Part shown: in pieces, positions 11,140 to 46,934 of the stretch
Position numbering within the stretch: position 1 is the first letter of the stretch
How the letters are laid out: each line of letters starts with the position of its first letter
Assembly (NCBI GenBank): GCA_001938485.1
Contig: MQRK01216488.1
Coordinates: 1 to 54,079, forward strand
Reading direction: 5' to 3'
DNA length: 54,079 nt
From: Girardia tigrina
Lineage: Eukaryota
The notes under the pieces: generated by a model
Told to the model about the DNA's origin: nothing
Database searches by the model: none
What the model saw: only the letters and a program-made list of their open reading frames with translations
Program-made: the position numbers and the translations under genes

Positions 11140-11605
11140 AAATCAGTCGAAAAATATTGAAATAGGTGCATTTATTGGGGCGTTGTTGACAGCTGGTCAT
11201 CTAAAATCGTCAGATGTTAGTATTGACAGATTATGGAGCAAAAGATACGGGCCTCCAATGTTTCGAACGATCATGTCCAAAAATAGATATCATGAAATTT
11301 GCCGATTTATTAGATTCGATGATAAAAATTCAAGAAATGAAAGGCGTGTCAATGATAAACTTGCACCTATCAGAGACTTGTGGGAACGAGTAAATAATAA
11401 TTTTGGAAAATTTTACATGCCATCATGTAATCTAACTGTAGACGAACAATTGTTTGGGTTTGATGGAAAGTGTGCATTCAAACAATATATGCCATCAAAA
11501 ACAGAAAAATATGGAATAAAACTATTTTGGATCAATGATTCGCAAACCGGATTTCCATTAGGAGGGATTCCATATTTAGGAAAAGAAGGAAACCAACGTG
11601 CTATC
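11140..11605 (+). pseudogene. piggyBac (PGBD-like) transposase fragment
   Basis: MSKNRYHEICRFIRFDD...DKLAPIRDLW...TVDEQLFGFDGKCAFKQYMPSKTEKYGIK; truncated on both sides. Confidence 0.9.
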
Positions 11606-12116
11606 TGTTGGGGTAATATAAAAATAAACTTTTTTCTTTCATTGTTAATTGAATTATTTATTTCTCTCACCTTATTTTATCTTGAACTCTTTGTAAATAA
11701 ATGAAAATTGTTATGTTTACTTTTTGAAATATTTTCGATTATGTGGGAATTATCATATTTGTTTTGTTATTATTTTATTATGCTTATTTATAATTTTATA
11801 TAAAATAATTTAATTTGAATATTTATTATTTATTGATTTAAAAATAATTATTATTATTATATTTTACGTGGTCGCACATATTTTTATAAGCCACGCATAT
11901 TTTGTTATAGCGCATCGTGGCCACGCATTTCTCTCGTGCGATTAGGCCACGCATCCGTCACGCTGCGACCATTTCTAATTTGTTTTTCTACGCGATTTAC
12001 TACGCAAGAACACGCAGTATAAAAATAACCGATAGAGTGCGTCAAAGTGCACATTTATAATTTTATTGCAGGTGAGGTTTTTCTCTTAAGTTGGCACATT
12101 TATAATTTTATTCCTA

Positions 12117-17388: not shown

Positions 17389-18200
17389 TTAGGTAGAGTA
17401 ATAGTAATCTCTTGGTGTTAATTGATAGACATGATCTCTTGTAATGGATTTATTCTCTTTATGTAAGATTTTTCGATCAGATATAGATACCAAATTTCCA
17501 CTTTTTAAATCTAGAGAAACACCTTCTAATTGTTGCAAAACATCAATGCCAAGCAACAATGATTCTGGGCAACTTTTTGAAATTAATACATTTGTTGTAA
17601 TAGTCTTGCCACCAATTTTAATTGACACTTGTACAGTTCCTTCAATAGCGAGATAATGACCCGTAACTGATTGTAATCTTTCAATACAAGGTGCCAGATT
17701 TAATATTTCAGATGCCAGAAGCATCTTTTCATCGACAATTGTGACTGCTGAACCAGTATCAACTAAAGCTGTAATATATCTATCATTTAGTAAAACAGTT
17801 ATTGTTAATCTTTGACCGAATTTAGTTCTTACAGCAAAAACATAATTACTTGGTAAACCCCATTGATTTCTTATTTCCACTTCTCTTTTTTGTTTTTCCT
17901 CTGAATTTATAGTTTCATGATTTGGATCAACAGGTTTCATTTCTTTAAGTTGTAAGAATGGATAGTAATTCGGTAATGGTCGAAAACTTGTCATATTGAA
18001 TGGTGCACCTGAATTTAACATTTCTTGATTCTTTATCATTTGTAGTTGATTCTCGTAATCTTTACACTCGCTTTTAGATATTGTTGATGTCGTTAAATTA
18101 CTATTACTTACAGTTTCATTTCCCGTTTCACTTTTTCTTCCATCACTTGTTACACTTGGATCGCTGTTGGAACTATCTGAGACAGATTCAAATTGTACCT
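17389..18200 (-). pseudogene. LTR-retrotransposon retropepsin (aspartic protease) fragment
   Basis: ITALVDTGSAVTIV catalytic motif, LQSVTG flap and LLLGIDVL motif; the frame stays open upstream of 18039 to ~18200. Confidence 0.9.
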
Positions 18201-18272
18201 TTTAATTTCCTTTTTTAAACTTTTACGACTTTTATTAATTTTCATTTCTGATTTTAATGTATTTATTTCTTT

Positions 18273-18688
18273 ATGATGATGATGAATTATAAAAAAATTT
18301 GCTATCATAAGAATGCAAAATTGATCAAAGGAGATGTATACCGAGTAATAAAAGAAAATGAAAAGGGTGCAAATGATGATGAAGTTTTACGAAATTTACT
18401 AAATACAGATATAGATAAAAATAAAATAGTCACTGCACTATTATATATTGTAATACGGGCACATGAAAAGATAGTCTTCTTTCCAACAGCGAAAAATACC
18501 TATGTGGAATTGGCAGTTGGACTAATAAATGGATAAATCCATGGATTCAAAAACAAGGAGGATGGCTAAAAGCATTCCGAGGAGAGGAAAACCGGAACGA
18601 GGATTCCGAAGAAGATATATTAATCAAAAATCTCAAGGAAAAGTTATACAGTTTAAATGACAAAAAGAAAAAATCAACTTCATGGCCA
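18273..18688 (+). pseudogene. Bcl-2-like domain (BH1-like and BH2), one frameshift, in frame with the downstream glycoprotein
   Basis: EVLRNLLNTDIDKNKIVTALLY (BH1-like); after a frameshift at ~18533, INPWIQKQGGWLKAF (BH2; TGG at 18542 is in the same frame as ATG 18689 with no stop between). Confidence 0.7.
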
Positions 18689-20254
18689 ATGATATTAATG
18701 ATGATAATGATGGTGTTTGAAGCATTACAAGGTGTAAATGCTATTGTCGCATATGATTGCGAGAAACCGAAATTCGGACAGAAATATTCTCTTCTCGATG
18801 TAGAAGAATGCACAGAAGCAAGTCCGATCAGTATTGAAACATTACCTGATAAAACATTAAATGTGTATCAGGAATCAGATGTTATATACACGGAAGCAAG
18901 AGAGTGTATAGTTAAATTTGTGGAAAGTGTATTCCATTGTGGAGGAACATTTGACACACCATTAAAACCCACTTATACTCCTGACCAAATGCAGATTTCG
19001 ACAAGTCAATGTGATGAAGCTTTTATCACAAAGAAAATCAAATTAGATGGAAAGGAAATGAATGTTCAAGTGGGAGCAATAGTGAAGGAAGCATTTAATA
19101 TAAAAGGATGGATATCCGGATCAGGACGATGTGCAGGAGAACCTGGTGAATTGTGGGGAAAGAAATGGCCAAATCTTGTCATAAGACGACAATATGTTGT
19201 GGGATTAAGAAAATTTGAAGCAGTATTTGATAGTGTCACAAGAAAAATGATGACACACCCATTTTGTATCGCAGACGATGATTTCTGCGACACTGGTGAA
19301 TCAATAATTTTATACAAAATAAATAAAAGAGAATGCCATTTAACCTTGTTAAAGACTACGAGTTTTAAAGAAATATCGGGATCAATGTTTAACAATAATG
19401 CTGAGGAAAATGTTCGTGATCAAAAAAGAGACAAAACAACAATAAAGAAATTGGCAACGCCAACAATTTATATTTCTGCTGATCCAAAGGATATGATGAA
19501 ATTTATACAAAAGGATCGAGTAGCTAAGTGTTATACTATGGTTTACGAAACTAATTATAAAGGGATATACATATCCACAACTGTAATTAAAGATAGTAAG
19601 GATAAAGTGAAAAAACAAGATGTTAATATAGTTACTTATTTTAATAATAAATTGGATTATTTATATCATACGTCATTACAAATGATATATAAATTGTATC
19701 ATGAAACAATAGCTGCAGATTGCAGGCTAAATAGACAAATTATACAATCAAAGATATCTTCAGCAACAGTCAATCCAGATATGATCACACCAATGTTGTT
19801 CAATGAAAAAGGATCATATGCCCGAGTAACTGGTGAAACGTTACAAGTCTTTAGCTGTACACCAGTACAAGTTTCAATAGCAATTACCGGAAAATGTACA
19901 AATGAAATGCCGGTCATGTATAAAGGGAAGCAAGTTTATATGTTACCTGTTACAAGAATATTAACAGATGAAAAATATATTCCCAAGGTAATAGAAAAAT
20001 GCACAAATATAGTGGATCCAGCTTACCAGATTGGAACGGATCATTGGATAACTGTATCAGATCGAAAAACGATAGCTACGCCCAAGAAGTTAGAATTGAT
20101 GACCTTGGAGAGAAAATTACAATTTACAGAATTTGACAAAATGGAGCAAAGTGGCTTATATTCACAACAAGCATTAGAAAGTGCCAGAAAATATGCACTA
20201 TTTCCCGTACAACGGGACAGGGTATTAACGATATACCGCAGAAAAGAACGCTAG
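18689..20254 (+). pseudogene. Chuvirus-like (class III, gB-related) envelope glycoprotein, C-terminally truncated
   Basis: Hydrophobic signal followed by AIVAYDC..YSLLDVEEC..ECIVK..HCG, C.L central helix, GETLQVFSCTPVQV, CTNEMPV..YMLPVTRIL; no C-terminal TM; compositional break at ~20230. Confidence 0.85.
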
Positions 20255-24735: not shown

Positions 24736-25670
24736 TCAATTTGAGAGGTTTAATCGCATATTGGGAATCATAGCTCGATCGATATTAGCTGCAGTGATTG
24801 ACTTCATATGTCTGATATCCTTTGTCCAGAACAGAAATTGTCGATTGAGATTTGAATTTTGAGATATGACTTTGATTGGAGAACTGTCCAACGATTCATG
24901 GAGCTTTAATTGCGCAAGAACTCTATCGATTTCCACATCATCAGGATTGAAGAGACGTTCATCTGGTTCATCAATACTGTTAATTTTCATATTCTTATAT
25001 CGTTTTAATTTTAAAGAAAATGTTGGATCTGAGACGGTTTCAGCAGATCTCCACTCACAATGAATGTAAGAAAGTCCGCGATCTTTTAGAAAATATTTAT
25101 CAAATTCTATTTCCGAGTCTTTCGATATTACGTCTAATATGTCATAAACGTTTTCAATTTGCGATCCAAGAATCTTTTTAACAACTTTACGTTGATTTTC
25201 TAAATTTAGTTCAAAATTTGAATCATCATCACTATTTATTGTTTTGGCCAATTCATACAAAGTTGGTAAATCATTTATATTCATTATGAGATCAGGGAAC
25301 TCATCACTTATAACATCATTACTGAGTGGATGCATACCAGAGTTCACTTTGGCTTCCTGATCGATCAGATCTTCCGAGGTACTCGAATTCGATTCTCGGT
25401 GTTTCATCAATTTCTTTTGTTTAACATAGTCGAGGATACAGTCGACCGAAGCGCAGTTGTCGTAATTTGGGAATTGAAAAGACTTCGAAATATCTTTTTC
25501 GTTTAGTTTCTTCTCGGAACATCGATCTGATTTGTTCAGTTTTACTTTCATTGTCGGGCGGGAATTGTTATTTGATTGATTGATTCCCATTTTACTGGCG
25601 ATATTGTCGAGGTTCTCGGTGACATCGGGATCATTTGAATTGTCATTCGAATCGTTAGACACACCATTGT
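24736..25670 (-). pseudogene. CHD6-9/kismet-like remodeler fragment (first chromodomain and start of the second)
   Basis: VVKKILG...YFLKDRGLSYIHCEW...KLKRYK...LFNPDDVEIDRVL; no helicase domain follows. Confidence 0.75.
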
Positions 25671-38325: not shown

Positions 38326-39078
38326 TTAACGAGCTGCTCGAGGGGGAGAAGATGATCGAGGAGGAGGATAAGTAATAGCTTTATCAGTTAGTTTTAACTC
38401 TTTAATACTTCTTATTCCTATAACTAAATTAATTTTACAACCATTAAAATTAATTAAATTTCCATTTTGATCTTGTATTCTAAATTTGACCTCTGCATCA
38501 TCATTCCTACGCTCAAATTTGGCAAATATGGGATAATTTACTTCTTTAATATTTTTTTTCCCAAAAGAAATATCTTCTAAAGGAAAGGAATACAGAATGC
38601 CACTTTCTTGCAATGAATCACACCAAATATTTATCGTATCAACGGGATATATTTCTGGAAGTTTTACACCAATGTTAATACTATCTTTATAAACTTTCTC
38701 TTCAAAACCTAATAAGTTATAGAAACCATGTTTAAGATCAACTTGATAATTTGGAGAAAGTTTCATTATAACTCTGCCATTATAGGGTTGTATATAAAAT
38801 GATATTTTTCCTTCCCCAACTTCTTTGGCTATTTCAGAATTTAAATCTTTTAATTCATAAAATCCATTAGGTAGTTGAATAGCCAAAAATGTATCCCCAT
38901 TATCCGCAGAATATAGGAACAGATTATTTTCATCTGTAATATTATAAATTGTATTATAACAAGAAAACCAAACTACTCCAAACTCTGTATTATCCGGAAA
39001 CATAGTTCCTAGACGTAATTTTATTTTAAACTCTGATGAGTAAGTTGTTGTTTTGACTATGTCAGATGTCACGAACAT
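38326..39078 (-). CDS. Penton/minor capsid protein 2 (paralog)
   Basis: WFSCYNTIYNITDENN.F...PNGFYEL...ILYSFP...RIQDQNGNLINFNG, colinear with the adjacent penton. Confidence 0.85.
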   Translation of the reverse strand: MFVTSDIVKTTTYSSEFKIKLRLGTMFPDNTEFGVVWFSCYNTIYNITDENNLFLYSADNGDTFLAIQLPNGFYELKDLNSEIAKEVGEGKISFYIQPYNGRVIMKLSPNYQVDLKHGFYNLLGFEEKVYKDSINIGVKLPEIYPVDTINIWCDSLQESGILYSFPLEDISFGKKNIKEVNYPIFAKFERRNDDAEVKFRIQDQNGNLINFNGCKINLVIGIRSIKELKLTDKAITYPPPRSSSPPRAAR

Positions 39079-39094
39079 TTTCTTTCTTTAACAT

Positions 39095-39907
39095 CTATTT
39101 ATAATTTTTATCTAAAATCTTTTTATATTTTTCAGTTGTTATAATTTTTGTCTCTAATAATCTCTTCAAGATAGCATTTACTTGATTGTAAGTGTTGTCA
39201 TGTCCAGCTTTCTTCGCAGCTAATAACTTTCTCAACTCGATAAATAGTAAAATTGGATTATCTGGAAGATAGTGGATGTATTCTTTATCCTCAAGATCAT
39301 AACCATCGCCTTCAATTTCTTCAAATTGTACACCAGCTTTAATTTTAAGATGTTTATGATATTTTCCTGTATTTTCTTTTACTTTTGCATCTTTTAATAT
39401 TTGTAAATACTTCTTAATCTCTTCTTTATCTTCACTACCATGACCACCTATTAACTTCTTTAACTCATGTGTAAACGGGAATATGCCTTCTTTTCCATTA
39501 CTAATTCCATATTTTGATAGATTGATTATTTTAGGATTGTTTTCATCATCACCAGCTATCATATGTACAACACCATTAATTGTCATAGCATGGTTTCCTC
39601 CAACTTTATGAATAATGGGGCGTATAGTTGTTGGAAGATTCTCTAAGATTTCAAAATCTATGTTAAATGATTTATAACTATTTTGTCTTAAAAATTTATT
39701 TACTATCTCTTCTTTATTTTTGTCCAAAATTTGAAGTTGGTGAGGTGGATTAATACTTTCCATCTGATTAGTTGCTTCTTTTTTAATCTTTTCCATCTCA
39801 ACAACTGTATTAACTAAACCTAAATGTTGATTTGCTTTCTCCGTTTTTATTTCTTTTTGTTCCTTCACTAACTTTTTTAAATATTCTAATCTTTCTTCGA
39901 ACACCAT
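39095..39907 (-). CDS. Conserved Polinton PZ-like protein
   Basis: C-terminal LPDNPILLFIELRKLLAAKKAGH....NQVNAIL..L motif, preceded by IEGDG. Confidence 0.7.
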   Translation of the reverse strand: MVFEERLEYLKKLVKEQKEIKTEKANQHLGLVNTVVEMEKIKKEATNQMESINPPHQLQILDKNKEEIVNKFLRQNSYKSFNIDFEILENLPTTIRPIIHKVGGNHAMTINGVVHMIAGDDENNPKIINLSKYGISNGKEGIFPFTHELKKLIGGHGSEDKEEIKKYLQILKDAKVKENTGKYHKHLKIKAGVQFEEIEGDGYDLEDKEYIHYLPDNPILLFIELRKLLAAKKAGHDNTYNQVNAILKRLLETKIITTEKYKKILDKNYK

Positions 39908-39922
39908 TTTTTTATTTAAAAA

Positions 39923-40159
39923 ATGGAAAAAAATTCTGAAACTGAATATTATTCACAAGTAATTATATTTGAAGATGGCTCTCGTGGAAAAATATTAATC
40001 CCGAAAAGAGTAATTATGGATACATTAGCTAGTAGTGAAATTGACAAAATGTCCATAAATTCTGACTATATCGGTGTTTTTGATAAAGTTCAAGAACTTT
40101 TAAACGAAGAAACAAATTTATTAAAACAGATAACCGAAAATAAAACAATCATAATTTAA
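39923..40159 (+). CDS. Small hypothetical protein
   Basis: 78-aa ORF with the same TAAAAAATG start context as other element genes. Confidence 0.5.
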   Translation: MEKNSETEYYSQVIIFEDGSRGKILIPKRVIMDTLASSEIDKMSINSDYIGVFDKVQELLNEETNLLKQITENKTIII

Positions 40160-40346
40160 TAACTAAATTAAGTCATCATGCATTTGAATATTTTTGTTCG
40201 CTTGAGCCTATTGGGGATGAGAAATATAAGAAAGTTTTTAAAATGCTGCAAGAAACTTTAATGTTAGAATTAGAATTATTTAATAAATTCATCAAAGTTA
40301 AAGACGATAGTATGAAGATATTAGCATGTATAGATAGTGAACCTCC

Positions 40347-41135
40347 TCAATAACTAAAAATATCATTTCGAATAACTAGGTCACCTTCTCGGTTAAATGC
40401 GAGATATCCATACTTTTCTTGCCATACTTTTGTCAAATCATTAAATTCGTCCGCTTCAATTTCATTACTTAGTAAATCTGAATAGATTAAACTCTTGTCT
40501 TTTTTGTTCAATTTAAACAAAATTACATAGTTAGAGTTTGCTCTGATACTACGTTTGTCTAAATCGAACCAAGATTGTGAAAGATAAATGACATTTACAT
40601 TTTGATGGCGTCCTCTTGTGAAATATTTTTCCATAATATTTTGGTTTTTCTCATTTTTACAATCATCAAAAACTATTAAATTTTTCTTATTTTTCGGTAA
40701 CTTCTCTGGAGGAATGACGTCATTCACATTATCGAAAAACTTTACACTTATGTTCTCGTTATCGGGGTGTTTAATTGCATACTGTTCTACAACTTCTTCA
40801 ATCGAAATATTTTCATCTTTAAACAATGTTTCTTGATTTTCAAAGATATATCTTATAGATTTTTTACTTAAATTATTTTCAAAACCGTTAAAAACTATCT
40901 GATATTCAGGTTGTGACAATGTTTTACTGAATATTATTAAGTTGTTATAATCGAGAAAGTTGTCAGTTAATAACATTCTTAACAATAAATTAGTCTTTCC
41001 ACACCCTGATGAGCCAACGATTAGCATCCTAAAACAAGATGGCAAGTTAGGATGATGAGAAAATGTAATTTTATTCATCTTGAAAATTGGATTGAACGGC
41101 TTTACCCCTTTAGTTTCAGTGGAAAATAATGCCAT
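40347..41135 (-). CDS. A32/FtsK-like DNA packaging ATPase
   Basis: Walker A GSSGCGKT, Walker B LIVFDD, FTRGRH...YLSQ, IRAN. Confidence 0.95.
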   Translation of the reverse strand: MALFSTETKGVKPFNPIFKMNKITFSHHPNLPSCFRMLIVGSSGCGKTNLLLRMLLTDNFLDYNNLIIFSKTLSQPEYQIVFNGFENNLSKKSIRYIFENQETLFKDENISIEEVVEQYAIKHPDNENISVKFFDNVNDVIPPEKLPKNKKNLIVFDDCKNEKNQNIMEKYFTRGRHQNVNVIYLSQSWFDLDKRSIRANSNYVILFKLNKKDKSLIYSDLLSNEIEADEFNDLTKVWQEKYGYLAFNREGDLVIRNDIFSY

Positions 41136-41151
41136 TTTTATGCTTTAAAAA

Positions 41152-41340
41152 ATGGAAAACACGACAAATGTTTTAAATTATGAATTCGAAAAAGTCTTAT
41201 CAGTTTTTGACAAGTATTCAATAAAAATAAGTAGTGATGTTTTATTTTATAAAATAGTAAGTTTTGTATTATTTATGTGTTTTATTTTTAGTTTTTTATT
41301 TGTTTTCCGTAAAACTGACCAGCTTGCTTCATTCTTCTAA
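41152..41340 (+). CDS. Possible small membrane protein
   Basis: 62 aa with one hydrophobic stretch and TAAAAAATG context; the hydrophobic part overlaps the 3' end of the antisense ORF. Confidence 0.3.
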   Translation: MENTTNVLNYEFEKVLSVFDKYSIKISSDVLFYKIVSFVLFMCFIFSFLFVFRKTDQLASFF

Positions 41341-41674
41341 GTAATCGATTTTTAGAATCGTCACTGTTTACAATAATAGATTCTTGTTTCTTTATTGCTG
41401 AAATCTTTTGAATTTTCTCTAAGTTTGGAATTGAGATTAATTCTTTCATTTTACTGTTTTCTTCCTCTAAGACTTCTATTTCTTTATCCATAAATAAAAT
41501 TGTATTGGTTTGTTTCTCGACCACATCTCTTAATAAGAAAGCATCAACCATGTTTTGCTTTCCAATGATTTCCTTTGTCGCATAATTACATTTATTATAT
41601 TCTTCAAGTTTCAATTCTAAAGCTTCTTTATTTCCTTGATCTTCTTTAGCTTGATTATAAAGCTCGATTTCCAT
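41288..41674 (-). CDS. Coiled-coil hypothetical protein
   Basis: 128-aa ORF with the conserved start context. Confidence 0.6.
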   Translation of the reverse strand: MEIELYNQAKEDQGNKEALELKLEEYNKCNYATKEIIGKQNMVDAFLLRDVVEKQTNTILFMDKEIEVLEEENSKMKELISIPNLEKIQKISAIKKQESIIVNSDDSKNRLLRRMKQAGQFYGKQIKN

Positions 41675-41692
41675 TTTTTTAAGGAAAAAATA

Positions 41693-42202
41693 TTATAATT
41701 TGGAAGCTTCGAGTAAATCGCTTAGTTCACTAGGATTTTGAGTGAGCTGCTTTGTATTCTGAGCATTTATTCGTTGTTTATTTTGTATCGACTCGTTGTT
41801 GACTAAATGCCCACTTTTGTCCACTTGTGGCATTGAAGATATTTCAATCTGCTTTTTATATTCTGAATAAACATCGAGATGTTTTGCTCTTGTATGTGCC
41901 AACATTCCAGCTGTATTTTTGGAAACAAACTCACAACTACTGCACTTAGATGGTTTAAAGGATGTTTTTTGTTTTCTTTTCTTAAAGACTTCTTCATTTA
42001 TATCAGATGAATACCTTTGTAAAGTTCTCTCAGAAATATTTAGCTGTTTTGCTACTTCTTTCTTTGTAGTTTTTGGATTGTCTAATTTAATAGACAATGC
42101 TTTATCTAAAGTAGCAAGTTTGTAAAATGTATTTATTGACCTTGTGTCAACACCATTATAATTATTCATGGAATATTGTAAAAATGAAATGTTATTTGAC
42201 AT
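41693..42202 (-). CDS. HTH plus C2H2 zinc-finger DNA-binding protein
   Basis: TKKEVAKQLNISERTLQRY (HTH); CSSC...AHTRAKH (C2H2). Confidence 0.8.
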   Translation of the reverse strand: MSNNISFLQYSMNNYNGVDTRSINTFYKLATLDKALSIKLDNPKTTKKEVAKQLNISERTLQRYSSDINEEVFKKRKQKTSFKPSKCSSCEFVSKNTAGMLAHTRAKHLDVYSEYKKQIEISSMPQVDKSGHLVNNESIQNKQRINAQNTKQLTQNPSELSDLLEASKL

Positions 42203-42217
42203 TTTTAAAACAAAAAA

Positions 42218-42760
42218 TTAAATATTTTTATAAGGATTTAAAAATAATCCATCTCCGGAATGTTTAATTTCTATTCCACGCTTCAAATTTTTAAGAATTG
42301 TCTTAATGGTTTTCTTTTCTGGATTTTGAAGATTTGAAGTTTTTAAAATATTTCTCAAATAATCAGAGATTCCTCTTCCTTGATAAGGATCTAAAAATAA
42401 TCCCGATGCTGCTTTTTCTATTGTTCCAGATGTCCCAGATGTTCCAGATGTTCCAACTTTTTCTTTCAAACGTCGCAACTCTTCTTCAGCTAATTTTTTC
42501 TGAGCATCAGCTTTTTTACTCTCTTTTACAGATTGTACAACTCCAGCAACTCCTCCAGCTGCTCCAGCTGCTCCACCAACAACTGACATAATCAGAGGGA
42601 TTATTGCTGCTAATGGTAATATTCCTCCTTTTTCTTGTAAATGTTTTTTTATATGTGCAATTATCTTTTTCGAGATATAAACTCTTTTCCCATCTAAAGT
42701 TATAGCTTTTGGAACACCTGTTGCAATTATATTTTTTAACTCTTCTTCCAAATTCGACAT
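42218..42760 (-). CDS. Virion core/membrane-lytic precursor (adenovirus pVI/pX-like, cupiennin-type)
   Basis: KGG followed by amphipathic ILPLAAIIPLIMSVVGGAAG; two GLFL.PY motifs. Confidence 0.7.
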   Translation of the reverse strand: MSNLEEELKNIIATGVPKAITLDGKRVYISKKIIAHIKKHLQEKGGILPLAAIIPLIMSVVGGAAGAAGGVAGVVQSVKESKKADAQKKLAEEELRRLKEKVGTSGTSGTSGTIEKAASGLFLDPYQGRGISDYLRNILKTSNLQNPEKKTIKTILKNLKRGIEIKHSGDGLFLNPYKNI

Positions 42761-42825
42761 TTTATTCCTTTTTAAAGTAAAAAATTTAAAGATATTTTAA
42801 AATTTTTTTATTAAAAAATAAGAAA

Positions 42826-44136
42826 ATGGAAGAAGATTTATCACAGAGGCAATTGTTTAATTTGGACAGAACTTTAAATTTTCTCCACGATTTAAAGAAA
42901 GAAGATTATTTAAGAGTTGCTGCTAGTGTAGATTCTTCAACAAATTTAAATAAGAATGGTGATATAAAGTTTCAAATTAATCAAACAAGTAATCCTTTAA
43001 ATTTAGGAGCAGAATTCTTTTATTACAAGATTAAACTATCAGGATTTGTTGTAGACTCGACTGTAACTTTAGAAAACAATTTTTTCCCGAGAATGTTTGA
43101 AAATATGAGATTACAATTAGGATCAGCAGAAATTGAAAACATAGGAAATTGTGGAGAATTTTCAAGTATGTTAAATTTTGTAATGTTAGACAAACCAACA
43201 GTTGAAACATATGGAGAATCGATAGGATGGATACCGGATACAGGTAAAGGAAGTGAGAAGAATCCTAATTTTGCTATAAGAAAAGAATTATATCAAGGTG
43301 ATGGAAAACTGAAAGCTGATACATCTTATTCATTCGATGGAAGATTCCCATTAAATACTTTGTTTGGATTCTTAGAAAATTATAATAGAGTTGTATTTTT
43401 GTTACCTATCAATATTATTTTAAATAGAAGGTTAAATGATGAAGATATTTTATATGGAACTGGAACAGGAGCTGGTGCAGATGCAAAGAAACCAACAGGA
43501 AAAGTTGAAATAGAATCATTAGAGCTATGGATTCCGGAATTAACTGTTAATCCAAGAAGTGAGGTAACTTTATTGGAAAGATTGAATAAAGATAAACCTA
43601 TCTCTGTAAATTTTCTAAATAGAAATGGAACCACAAATGAACTTTCAGCTGGAAGTACAAATATAAGTTGGAAAGTAAGTTTAACAAATTCTAGACCGAG
43701 ATATGTTTTAGTAGCTTTCAAAGATTTAACTACTTCAATTGAGAAAAATAATTCCTTGTTTATTCAAAAAGATGGAGCTAATACTATAACAAGTTTAAGA
43801 GTTCAGATTAATAACTCTTACTATCCTATAAATAAGATGGAGTTTGACGCTGTAGGAAATAAACAGATGGAACCGTATTTAGCTTATGTGAAAATGTGTA
43901 AAGAATTTAATGTTTTGCCACAGTTAAATATTAGAGATTTTAAAAATTTATACTCAATTTTCTGTTTTGATGTTTCTGCTCAAAATGAAAAACTTTCTGT
44001 AAATGGTTGTGATATCACAGTTCACATTACAAAATCAACTGATTTTAAAGCAAAAGCATATTGTTTAATTTTAGAAGAGAAACATTGTCAGATACAAACA
44101 AAGAATGGAAAGATGTTTACTGTTGAAATGATTTAA
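42826..44136 (+). CDS. Major capsid protein (double jelly-roll)
   Basis: 436 aa, intact; IESLELWIP, RPRYVLVAF, LRVQINNSYYP, FKNLYSIFCFDVS motifs of Polinton MCPs. Confidence 0.88.
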   Translation: MEEDLSQRQLFNLDRTLNFLHDLKKEDYLRVAASVDSSTNLNKNGDIKFQINQTSNPLNLGAEFFYYKIKLSGFVVDSTVTLENNFFPRMFENMRLQLGSAEIENIGNCGEFSSMLNFVMLDKPTVETYGESIGWIPDTGKGSEKNPNFAIRKELYQGDGKLKADTSYSFDGRFPLNTLFGFLENYNRVVFLLPINIILNRRLNDEDILYGTGTGAGADAKKPTGKVEIESLELWIPELTVNPRSEVTLLERLNKDKPISVNFLNRNGTTNELSAGSTNISWKVSLTNSRPRYVLVAFKDLTTSIEKNNSLFIQKDGANTITSLRVQINNSYYPINKMEFDAVGNKQMEPYLAYVKMCKEFNVLPQLNIRDFKNLYSIFCFDVSAQNEKLSVNGCDITVHITKSTDFKAKAYCLILEEKHCQIQTKNGKMFTVEMI

Positions 44137-44211
44137 AAAGTATGAGTAAAACGATGAGAAAACGATGAGGCAAAAAAAGTGATGAGAAAACGATGATTTC
44201 AAACACAAAAA

Positions 44212-45516
44212 TTACGATTTTTGTAATTCATTTGTATAAAATCTTCCTAATATTTTTTCTCCATTTAAATCAATAATCGAATAAACTATAGGATTTGTTT
44301 TATGAACTTCACTTATAACAAACACCTCTTTAGACCACTTATGGGTAAAACCTTTTTCAAATTTGTTTTTCCATTTAAAAATTCTAACATGATCACCAAT
44401 TTTAAATTTTGGAATATCTTTTTGGATTTCTTCTTTATTTTCTTCTTTGATCACATCAGGATTATCAGATGCTTCTTCAGGAGAAACTCCTATTGTTCTG
44501 TGGATTTTATGGTTGTAAAAATTTAACACTTTAGGTAATATTTTTAACCATTTTTGATTTCCTTGCATTGTAAACTCTTTCCACATAAAATTTTTTAAAG
44601 TTTTATTAAATCTTTCTATAACAGGATTATGTGATGGACCTTGACTTCTTTCATCGGGTTGATTAAAAGTTGAATAGATTTCTATCTTGTTTTGCTTTAA
44701 GAAGTCTAAAAATGTTTTGTTGTAAAATTCTGATCCGTGATCAACGTATAATTTTTTAGGAATTCTTTCTTCTTCAAATAAAATTTCAAAAGTATTTTTA
44801 ATCGCATTTCCTGTTTTATTTTTTAAAGGGAAAGCCCATGCGTATTTTGTATATAAATCTATAATTGTTAAAATGTATTTATAATCTTCATCTTTTTTCA
44901 TTTCAACTAAATCCGCTCCCCAAATATCATCTTTGTTAAAAACTTTAACTTTTAAAAATGTTTTAGGTTTTCTATATTCTTTATGTAATTCTTGTGTAAG
45001 ACGAAGTCTATTCCCTTCCGAGGAAGCCAGAAGTTCATTTTTATTTTCATTTTCATTAGATATTTCACCACCAAACATAATTTTTAATTTCATAGCATTT
45101 TTGACAAGTGTTCTTGCAATTCTTTCTCCAAATGTTGGCTTTTTAATTTCGTTTAAATCCTGAATTAAATCAATATCCGCCTTTTGCCTTGAACGAATAT
45201 CTTCGTTGTTATAAGCAATATCATGTTTTAAACATGCATTATCAACACGATTTATTGGTTCTTCTCCAGGATTTGGTTGATTATTCCCATCTAATCTGAT
45301 GTCTAAACGTGTTCCAGGTCCTGCATAAGCATAGCCCGGAAGATGATGTTCTCCTTTATATTTAGACCATGGAAAGTCTGGTAACTTTTTTGAAATTGTT
45401 TGAAGGTCTCCTCCTTTTGGAGAAAGACTTAAATGTTTTTTAGTTTGTTCGTGCCTAACTTTATTAGCTTTTGAAACAAATTTTCCACATATTGTACAGA
45501 AATGATTATTACTCAT
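44212..45516 (-). CDS. C2H2 finger - parvovirus-type phospholipase A2 - retroviral-like (rve) integrase fusion
   Basis: CTIC..HEQTKKH; HLPGYAYAGPGT..DNACLKHDIAY..AD; WGADLVEM, YVDHGSEFYN, VIERFNKTLK; one uninterrupted ORF; no chromodomain. Confidence 0.92.
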   Translation of the reverse strand: MSNNHFCTICGKFVSKANKVRHEQTKKHLSLSPKGGDLQTISKKLPDFPWSKYKGEHHLPGYAYAGPGTRLDIRLDGNNQPNPGEEPINRVDNACLKHDIAYNNEDIRSRQKADIDLIQDLNEIKKPTFGERIARTLVKNAMKLKIMFGGEISNENENKNELLASSEGNRLRLTQELHKEYRKPKTFLKVKVFNKDDIWGADLVEMKKDEDYKYILTIIDLYTKYAWAFPLKNKTGNAIKNTFEILFEEERIPKKLYVDHGSEFYNKTFLDFLKQNKIEIYSTFNQPDERSQGPSHNPVIERFNKTLKNFMWKEFTMQGNQKWLKILPKVLNFYNHKIHRTIGVSPEEASDNPDVIKEENKEEIQKDIPKFKIGDHVRIFKWKNKFEKGFTHKWSKEVFVISEVHKTNPIVYSIIDLNGEKILGRFYTNELQKS

Positions 45517-45789
45517 TTTTTAATTCATTAAAATAATAAAAATAGATTTATATATTTATTTACAAATACTCTTAGCTGCATATTCAGCGATTAAATTATT
45601 TCGAACTGCTTTATCAATATCTTTGGAAAGTTTCATTACTTGATTCTGATGTCGCACAGTAGCAAGAAACATTCTTTATTTTATAATCGCCATATTTTTT
45701 ACAATTCCTTTTTTAATTTGAAAAATAAGTTTATGTTTTTACTAATAACCCATTCCCATGCTGTGGGAATCTATAAATAGTAACATATA

Positions 45790-45987
45790 TTAGATCTCTT
45801 TTAAACAAGTAGAACATCTCCATATATCTTTACTACAATCACAATCCTTGTAACATCCAACACCCCAATTTGAACCTGAACAATCTTTACCTAATTTAAT
45901 CACAGTACATAAAGTTTCTTTCTTACAAAAACCACAATACACTTCATTTTGAAAACCTACACCAAATACATTCTGATTAGTATTCAT
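45790..45987 (-). CDS. Small Cys-rich (putative Zn-ribbon) protein
   Basis: 65 aa with CGFC, C...CDC and CSTC; TAAATG start. Confidence 0.5.
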   Translation of the reverse strand: MNTNQNVFGVGFQNEVYCGFCKKETLCTVIKLGKDCSGSNWGVGCYKDCDCSKDIWRCSTCLKEI

Positions 45988-46031
45988 TTATTTTTTATCA
46001 TATTTTTTGATAAATCCTTGTGTTAAATTTC

Positions 46032-46130
46032 GCTAAAATTGCTAAAATTGCTAAAATTGCTAAAATTGTTAAAATTGTTAAAATTGTTAAAATTGTTAAA
46101 ATTGGTAAAATTGTTAAAATTGTTAAAATC
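46032..46130. repeat. 9-bp tandem repeat, 11 copies
   Basis: gctaaaatt x4 followed by gttaaaatt-type x7. Confidence 0.95.
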
Positions 46131-46242
46131 GTAGCAGTAGTAATAGTAGCCTTCGAACAGACGCACCAAATCTGAGTAGTAAGGAAATGGCAGACATAAG
46201 CCAATATGAATTTCATGGGTTTTTTGGCAAAATTTTGACAAA

Positions 46243-46934
46243 TTTTACAGATTTTAAAAAATTAAATTTTTCACTAAAAAGTCAGTTTTTTTTGAAAATT
46301 TTTATTTTTTGAAAAGTTGTATTTTTGGGGTAATTTTGGTGAAATTTCATTATTTTTAGAGACTTAAGAAAATTTTAATTTTTTTAAATTTTCTATAAAT
46401 GAGATGGAAAATGGATTAAAATGTGTGATTTCTAGAAATTTTAAATTTTTTTATTTTTTTTCATATCATTTTTACCAGTTTTTAGCAATTTTTACAGATT
46501 TTAAAAAATTAAATTTTTCCCTAAAAAAGTCAGTTTTTTTGAAAATTTTTATTTTTTGAAAAGTTGTATTTTTTAGGGTAATTTTGGTGAAATTTGAACA
46601 TTTTATTGGAGTTAAGAAATTTTGAATTTTTAGTAATTTCCTATGAATGAGATGAAAAAAGGATTAAAATGTGTGATTTCTAGAAATTTTAAATTTTTTT
46701 ATTTTTTTATAAGTTGTCCGGAGTAGTATAAAAAGGGGGGACTCTAGATCCACAGCGAATGAGTGAGTTTCGAGGGGCTTTGAGGGAGGTTTGAGGAGCG
46801 AGCGACGAAAAACCGGACGAAAAGACACCGAAACGAACGAAATGAGCGGTTTTTTCGGCCTTGAGGCGCGAGCGAAGCGAGCGACGAAAAGGTCGAAAAA
46901 AGTTGGGTCTAGAGTCCCCCCTTTTTATACTACT
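46243..46934 (-). repeat. Right TIR with a tandemly duplicated ~220-245 bp subterminal unit
   Basis: 46243-46460 resembles 46490-46710; terminal cassette at 46722-46934. Confidence 0.88.

Follow-up and report, generated by a model that had tools for sequence, protein, structure and literature searches.

How does the integrase of a Polinton reach a new nucleus, and which proteins does the element's protease cut? Both questions are raised by a single reading frame in the 54,079-nucleotide stretch of Girardia tigrina DNA analysed here (the window, by which we mean that whole stretch), in which a parvovirus-type phospholipase A2 (PLA2) runs on into an integrase. The locus offers a defined substrate and a candidate site for the protease, in a group of elements for which no virions have been observed so far, according to the available sections of PMC8097293 and of a 2026 framework preprint. 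A sequence-only reading had proposed that the integrase is packaged as a fusion with the PLA2 and then released by the element's own protease, in the manner of Gag-Pol. (Published work is cited throughout from those sections of each source that were available.)

The element and its fused reading frame

The reading frame belongs to a Polinton (Table 1) that carries the terminal motif described for such elements (PMC8097293) and has ATGGAA on either side, a 6-bp target-site duplication indicating that an integrase acted on it. Its sequence-based assignment to the Polintons and adintoviruses draws on a PolB (a broken gene), an rve integrase (PF00665), terminal inverted repeats and a capsid/ATPase/protease module, all of which were found, the capsid protein being of the double jelly-roll kind. 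The copy is decayed, as is evident from a PolB broken into four ORFs. The penton label is putative, drawn from position and from matches in related loci; the two ORFs that bear it are tandem paralogues, and a third related stretch of DNA lies at 38193-38267. The protease gene looks intact and belongs to a large family (150 scored matches genome-wide, mostly open frames), and a search of the PDB with its sequence gave no match. The pX-like protein resembles the C-terminal half of a canonical PLA2X, that of locus L107 (37% over 90 aa, E 3e-7); in the window this part is a gene of its own and is absent from the PLA2 chain.

Table 1. Positions of the element and its features in the window
Feature	Position	Strand	Basis
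Polinton/Maverick (adintovirus-type) element, 18,850 bp	28085-46934		AGTAGT...ACTACT ends, terminal inverted repeats
Protein-primed PolB in four ORFs	29766-34146	+	PF03175; frameshifts and stops
Maturation protease	36989-37402	-	GSHW, FDHYG, QIQ, MCG motifs (His/Asp/Gln/Cys)
Two penton-like (minor capsid-like) ORFs, 37421-38020 and 38326-39078	37421-39078	-	Position, related-locus matches
A32-type packaging ATPase	40347-41135	-	PF04665
pX-like core protein (KGG|ILPL...), 180 aa	42218-42760	-	BLASTP to L107 PLA2X
ORF	42826-44136	+	PF21738, E 6e-29
PLA2-integrase fusion ORF, 434 aa	44212-45516	-	ORF call, Pfam, AlphaFold model
rve integrase, D202/D259/E301, C-terminal beta-barrel, without chromodomain	44215-44991	-	Pfam, model, fold searches
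Linker, GG to ELHKEY	44992-45066	-	Disordered and of variable length; in frame, A6 run absent
MFGG, aa 147-150, candidate protease site releasing integrase	45067-45078	-	Sister copies, homologues
Parvovirus VP1u-type PLA2 domain	45070-45408	-	PF08398, AAV VP1 profile matches
KGG, aa 34-36, candidate N-terminal processing site	45409-45417	-	Segment pLDDT<50
C2H2-like finger, aa 6-29, C-x2-C-x11-H-x5-H	45430-45501	-	Sequence, model

Inward of the right terminal repeat (46752-46934), the first ~30 bases of that repeat recur in inverted orientation at 46723-46751. The left end is similar, so that each end of the element could form a long hairpin. A 9-nt tandem array and a 248-nt direct repeat occupy 46016-46150 and 46211-46706 inside the right end, the direct repeat being mirrored at 29456-29729, and a small Cys-rich reading frame of about 64 aa (45790-45987, minus strand) sits just upstream of the fusion gene. 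Elsewhere in the window, at 17389-20254, a retroviral-type aspartyl protease ORF (minus strand) adjoins a 521-aa viral fusion glycoprotein ORF (plus strand; Pfam Monjiviricetes_fusion, E 1e-60), probably an env-bearing retroelement. An intronless cis-prenyltransferase-like fragment (PF01255) adjoins a 324-aa ORF at 24736-26414 (minus strand), possibly as processed gene fragments, the end of this ORF being presumably akin to a CHD-type chromodomain. A piggyBac-type transposase fragment (PF13843) lies at 11258-11704.

In the 434-aa product, Pfam assigns aa 57-138 to Phospholip_A2_4 (PF08398; E 1.2e-11) and aa 197-281 to rve (E 8.7e-14) and finds no match to the chromodomain (PF00385) that the adintovirus integrase of Buck et al. 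possesses; the PLA2-domain profile also matches AAV VP1 entries (E~2e-4). All that the sequence-only reading had listed for this intact ORF, namely the finger, the KGG, the PLA2, the MFGG and a complete DDE integrase lacking a chromodomain, is indeed present, with one correction of position: 45067-45078, which it had given for IMFGG|E, spans MFGG, and IMFGGE occupies 45064-45081. The PLA2 carries YAGPG at aa 64-68, HDxxY at aa 98-102 (H98-D99-Y102) and D114, and its last helix runs from aa 129 to 149. The YxGxG loop, the HDxxY and the second Asp of the parvovirus type are thus all in place, and Ca-dependent lipolytic activity is predicted.

An AlphaFold model of the ORF (84 aligned sequences, mean pLDDT 87.3, pTM 0.60) shows a helical PLA2 and, in the integrase part, a core followed by a C-terminal barrel, pLDDT falling below 50 at residues 31-36 and 150-162; fold searches with the model returned integrases as the sole matches. 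The finger, which has no Pfam match at E<=0.01, is modelled as a hairpin and helix (pLDDT 81-87). It is shared with close relatives, elsewhere being replaced by a CxxC ribbon or by nothing, and that it binds DNA for packaging is our guess. The ORF has no Met between the GG and the first catalytic Asp. A raw-read run returned 8 partial reads, all outside the ORF.

Sister copies, homologues and earlier descriptions

Given the broken PolB of this copy, one might suppose the fusion to be a lesion or an assembly artefact peculiar to it. Such an origin, to which we assign a vanishingly small probability, is refuted by the presence of the fusion in 94 of 99 sister copies and in about 100 database homologues. 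The sister copies were drawn from the 1.43-Gb genome, in which the whole protein found 101 matches and the PLA2 alone 150 scored matches out of 1,482 candidates: 19 were taken by whole-protein score and 80 from the best ~95 rows of the PLA2-only list, whole-protein picks, three copies at contig ends and two near-duplicates being left out of the latter. The junction is open in frame in the 94, frameshifted in one and unscorable in four; for the 80 copies chosen by PLA2 score alone, the number open in frame is 75.

The linker past the GG has 17 lengths (24-96 nt) among the 99 copies, 16 of them multiples of 3, and many of these variants are 6-nt repeat steps, which preserve the frame without selection. 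Since 24 of the 46 complete integrase regions in the sister copies are broken by decay, a single break among such short linkers is unremarkable and gives no sign of per-base protection. The codons of G149 and G150 show 49 synonymous differences each and 2 and 0 non-synonymous ones, respectively (counts of copies, not of events). Helix 139-150 is conserved throughout, beyond the GG, and conservation ends immediately after it. By this sequence comparison, the fusion is a heritable family trait under selection and no lesion.

The architecture is not rare either, its being common having been one of the outcomes that the sequence-only reading had itself named as refuting. A protein search with the fusion ORF yielded 562 homologues at E<=1e-20, both domains being found in 100 of the best 120. 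After clustering at 50% identity, 28 of the 150 best representatives have both, proportions that are not frequencies because both lists were ranked by a two-domain query. By sequence, the PLA2-integrase architecture is plainly widespread. A scan of viral_contigs with the single protein found no relatives, the integrase-start pattern had 0 matches there, and the phage collection searched gave no match. A quick integrase tree (72 rows, one left out, with 25 of 69 inner branches open) places the window integrase in a 19-row clade of in-frame, chromodomain-less fusions (SH-aLRT 99), other fusions lying in a separate, chromodomain-bearing clade. In-frame protease-integrase fusions (L105:2740-4251; P0131, P0164, P0176) occupy at least two positions in the tree.

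The fusion has, moreover, been labelled before. In the available part of the supplement to a preprint (Buck et al., 2024; PMC11071296), 2 of 59 PLA2 entries are labelled 'PLA2-Integrase' (Adinto15303 and Adinto6405), with the same in-frame architecture as in the window; more fused sequences stand there under different names, alongside PLA2X-Adenain forms. For penton and for hexon-adenain, section 16 of the preprint suggests slippery sites of the -1 type, and its available text holds no treatment that we could find of the PLA2-integrase fusion, of a cleavage site there or of a PLA2/integrase frameshift. The adintovirus/Polinton PLA2X (Starrett et al., 2021; PMC8502044) is like the window in its parvovirus-type PLA2 and in its gene module of capsid, penton, ATPase, protease, PolB and integrase; it differs in bearing a pX-like tail and in being separate from a chromodomain-bearing integrase, whereas the PLA2 in the window is joined to a chromodomain-less one. 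Polinton PLA2 was mentioned by Yutin in 2013 and 2015, the later paper proposing that it is packaged. The fusion is absent from the available sections of PMC5803895, PMC11131425, the 2026 framework preprint, PMC11161782, PMC12220804, PMC8097293 and PMC10748475, and within the openly accessible full-text literature searched no paper was found on junction cleavage or on a PLA2-to-integrase frameshift. The PLA2-integrase fusion is real and conserved, yet common and already labelled.

The glycine motif at the junction

The junction had been described as a canonical adenain site, a description that holds for this lineage: MFGG|E fits (M/I/L)XGG|X, which adenain cuts along with (M/I/L)XGX|G and some cases of relaxed P4 (PMC4246237), and MFGG is retained in 96 of the 99 sister copies. 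It does not extend to the family. Of 126 fused proteins, 118 passed a filter that required H98, D202 and a filled junction column, and thinning to below 70% identity left 75; D99, Y102 and D114 are kept in all 75, H98 being a requirement of the filter. Of their junctions, 53 read GxG and 15 read GG, while 5 have one G and 2 have none, so that GG/GxG stands in 68 of 75, and the GX|G form, the alternative in adenovirus, is the usual one. The P4 residue is M, I or L in just 8 of the 68. Of 18,153 control segments from the homologues' integrase parts, 24 carry such a pattern, a control by which the motif exceeds chance. What is conserved, to judge from these alignments, is a GG/GxG signal of clan-CE type, and the match to the adenain P4 rule is a local or lineage coincidence. 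Adenoviruses are not known to have an integrase or a PLA2.

A closer parallel is provided by mavirus: its protease, a relative, cleaves at GG|X and at GX|G but leaves two other GXG sites uncut (Born et al., 2018; PMC6048507). GG and GxG alternate across our homologues like the two patterns cut by adenain and by this enzyme, and because GG/GxG fits the related mavirus protease, cleavage at the fusion junction appears likely. The mavirus virion contains its integrase beside a predicted hydrolase, the latter cleaved near GK|G (PMC6048507); unlike the PLA2-integrase of the window, these are products of separate genes, and the hydrolase is of the alpha/beta type, not a PLA2.

On balance we favor, with somewhat better than even confidence, a model in which one in-frame PLA2-integrase protein is packaged as a virion-core precursor and cut after Gly-Gly by the element's own cysteine protease. 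Synthesized as a single core precursor and taken into the virion, the protein would be cut between residues 150 and 151, after the Gly-Gly that ends the PLA2, and probably a second time between 36 and 37, after the KGG ahead of it. The freed PLA2, a predicted breacher of membranes, would act at entry, and the freed integrase would travel with the genome and be delivered with it. The site would be a clan-CE signal of the general GG|X / GX|G kind, carried over from stand-alone PLA2X, rather than an adenain-specific one. In keeping with this, the motif lies at a domain boundary, between a folded helix and a disordered linker of variable length, in the model and among homologues.

The main rival to the cleavage model, though a rather unlikely one in our estimation, holds that the fusion works uncut, with GG/GxG as a helix cap only and the PLA2 as a permanent N-terminal domain and packaging tag of the integrase. 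G149 does cap the modelled helix, which ends there, placing P4-P2 in the folded segment. P4 is unconserved, 7 of the 75 homologues lack GG/GxG altogether, and the spacing from motif to integrase start is very short in some. Yet one Gly suffices for a cap, and a second follows at +1 or +2 in 68 of 75; G150, moreover, is the residue with no non-synonymous difference in 99 copies.

The wider distribution of the motif cuts both ways. The PLA2 of adintovirus PLA2X ends in K-x-K-x-G-x-G (PMC8502044), and the stand-alone PLA2X domains found here (L101-L103, L107, L108, L110) end in the same glycine motif, a close stand-alone PLA2 relative (P0231) having the same MLGG end. Since stand-alone domains also end in it, the motif is, by these comparisons, older than the fusion. 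It is present as well in L129, L152 and L192, where nothing or a stop comes next, and so may be partly structural, as the uncut alternative would have it. Against that alternative, the motif recurs elsewhere: at the KGG position on the N-terminal side of the PLA2 (GG/GxG in 35 of 75 homologues, 17 beginning at the PLA2), in the pX-like protein, and, as GxG, ahead of the integrase start in the protease-integrase fusions L105, P0164 and P0176. Within the window element, the 180-aa pX-like protein has five GG/GxG motifs and the PolB pieces, 1,230 aa in all, have none; that the capsid protein has five as well counts against the cleavage model. Under that model, we would regard the PLA2 as a cleavable core module, and its terminal glycines as the point behind which any fused cargo would enter the virion and later be set free.

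Out-of-frame junctions in relatives

As the protein databases show only in-frame fusions, a scan at the DNA level was chosen for relatives. A PLA2-loop pattern found at least 120 stretches in a metagenome collection, and a MAG contig and a pair of loci from IMG/VR brought the set examined to 123; 56 had no PLA2 end in reach, 15 had no subsequent integrase start motif, and the 52 scorable ones came to 43 once 95% duplicates and broken-PLA2 loci were dropped. Among the matches listed, 25 of these 43 non-redundant loci have the integrase at -1 relative to the PLA2, 14 have it in frame and 4 have it at +1, and an A6+ run stands at the junction in 24/25, 2/14 and 4/4, respectively (-1 versus in frame, Fisher p 3e-7, the loci being related and p-values indicative). 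An in-register X_XXY_YYZ heptamer (A_AAA_AAN or T_TTA_AAN) follows just past the G-x-G in 12 of 13 otherwise intact -1 loci, that of L109 being imperfect. The window's own family has no out-of-frame overlap and no A6 run at its junction, and L106 is in frame with a later break. A G_GGA_AAC-type slip at the GAGN-stop loci was rejected, the integrases there having their own ATG.

These junctions are the new lead to emerge from the locus, suggesting as they do a Gag-Pol-like recoding, and we consider it quite probable, from the sequence pattern, that the -1 junctions at A-runs are sites of recoding. In the chromodomain-bearing clade, the PLA2 and integrase genes overlap in -1 at an A-run, and recoding is there the likely source of the fused product. 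It could come about by tRNA slippage, by sliding of the ribosome on AAA codons, as described for lysine codons (PMC4363877), or by polymerase slippage.

A possible but improbable alternative, confined to these relatives, is that the -1 junctions are homopolymer deletions, by copy decay or assembly error, of an in-frame fusion. A single-base loss from an A-run would leave an identical signature; four non-redundant loci are in +1, and L170, L198 and L233, although nearly identical, cover the three possible frames between them and have A-runs of unequal length. No downstream stimulatory RNA structure was detected at the -1 sites in 13/13 loci (z -1.96 to +2.12, pseudoknots being outside the model). 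Random deletion, however, sits poorly with 30 A6+ junctions of which 24 are at -1 and just 2 in frame, or with a ratio of -1 to +1 of 25 to 4 (binomial p 1e-4, the loci being not fully independent). Among the matches listed, the -1 linkers, moreover, have many lengths, from 14 to 62 nt, and seven have only A6, and in 13 -1 loci of the first set neither frame has any other interruption within the DNA examined.

The same loci bear on another reading, in which the open frame is incidental and the integrase is a product of its own, translated from a spliced RNA or beginning at an internal Met (M142 or M147). M147 is retained in 98 of the 99 sister copies, and L129, L152 and L192 carry PLA2 and integrase as neighboring genes, each with its own ATG. 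We nevertheless hold separate synthesis to be very improbable: it leaves the family-wide lack of a stop without a reason, a Met is missing at the M147 position in most homologues, and in 11 of 13 scorable -1 loci, among the matches listed, the first in-frame Met lies beyond the first catalytic Asp, so that the integrase there would have no usable start of its own.

In retroviral Gag-Pol, a virion protein is extended by an enzyme, through -1 recoding or in frame according to lineage, and the viral protease then releases that enzyme. The Gag-Pol-like idea of the sequence-only reading gains support from the -1 overlap in relatives, and together with the processing logic of GG/GxG this overlap makes the analogy stronger. 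The differences are that the present case concerns a dsDNA element, that the protease is a cysteine and not an aspartic one, and that the signal is an A-run without detectable 3' RNA structure; the steps themselves are inferred. We would put at about even the chance that a true Polinton Gag-Pol strategy exists, in which the integrase is loaded by appending it to PLA2, through -1 recoding at an A-run or in frame, and released at GG/GxG, the same applying to PLA2X-protease. If recoding is true, many integrases of such elements that are now called 'broken' or truncated would be wrongly annotated, and a group of dsDNA viruses would have arrived convergently at the retroviral control of the ratio of enzyme to structural protein. 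The 14-62-nt junctions of the relatives are directly testable.

Three further observations concern the relatives. At the PLA2X/protease junction, a -1 overlap at a long A-run is seen in L101, L102 and L107, the junction being in frame in L108 and L110 and +1 in L103. In L204, a single reading frame matching the pX-like protein and the protease adjoins a PLA2-integrase fusion. Finally, L246, a contig filed in a bacterial MAG, carries a Polinton-type PLA2 and a chromodomain integrase, both open and in the +1 state; it is probably eukaryotic-virus DNA binned into that MAG.
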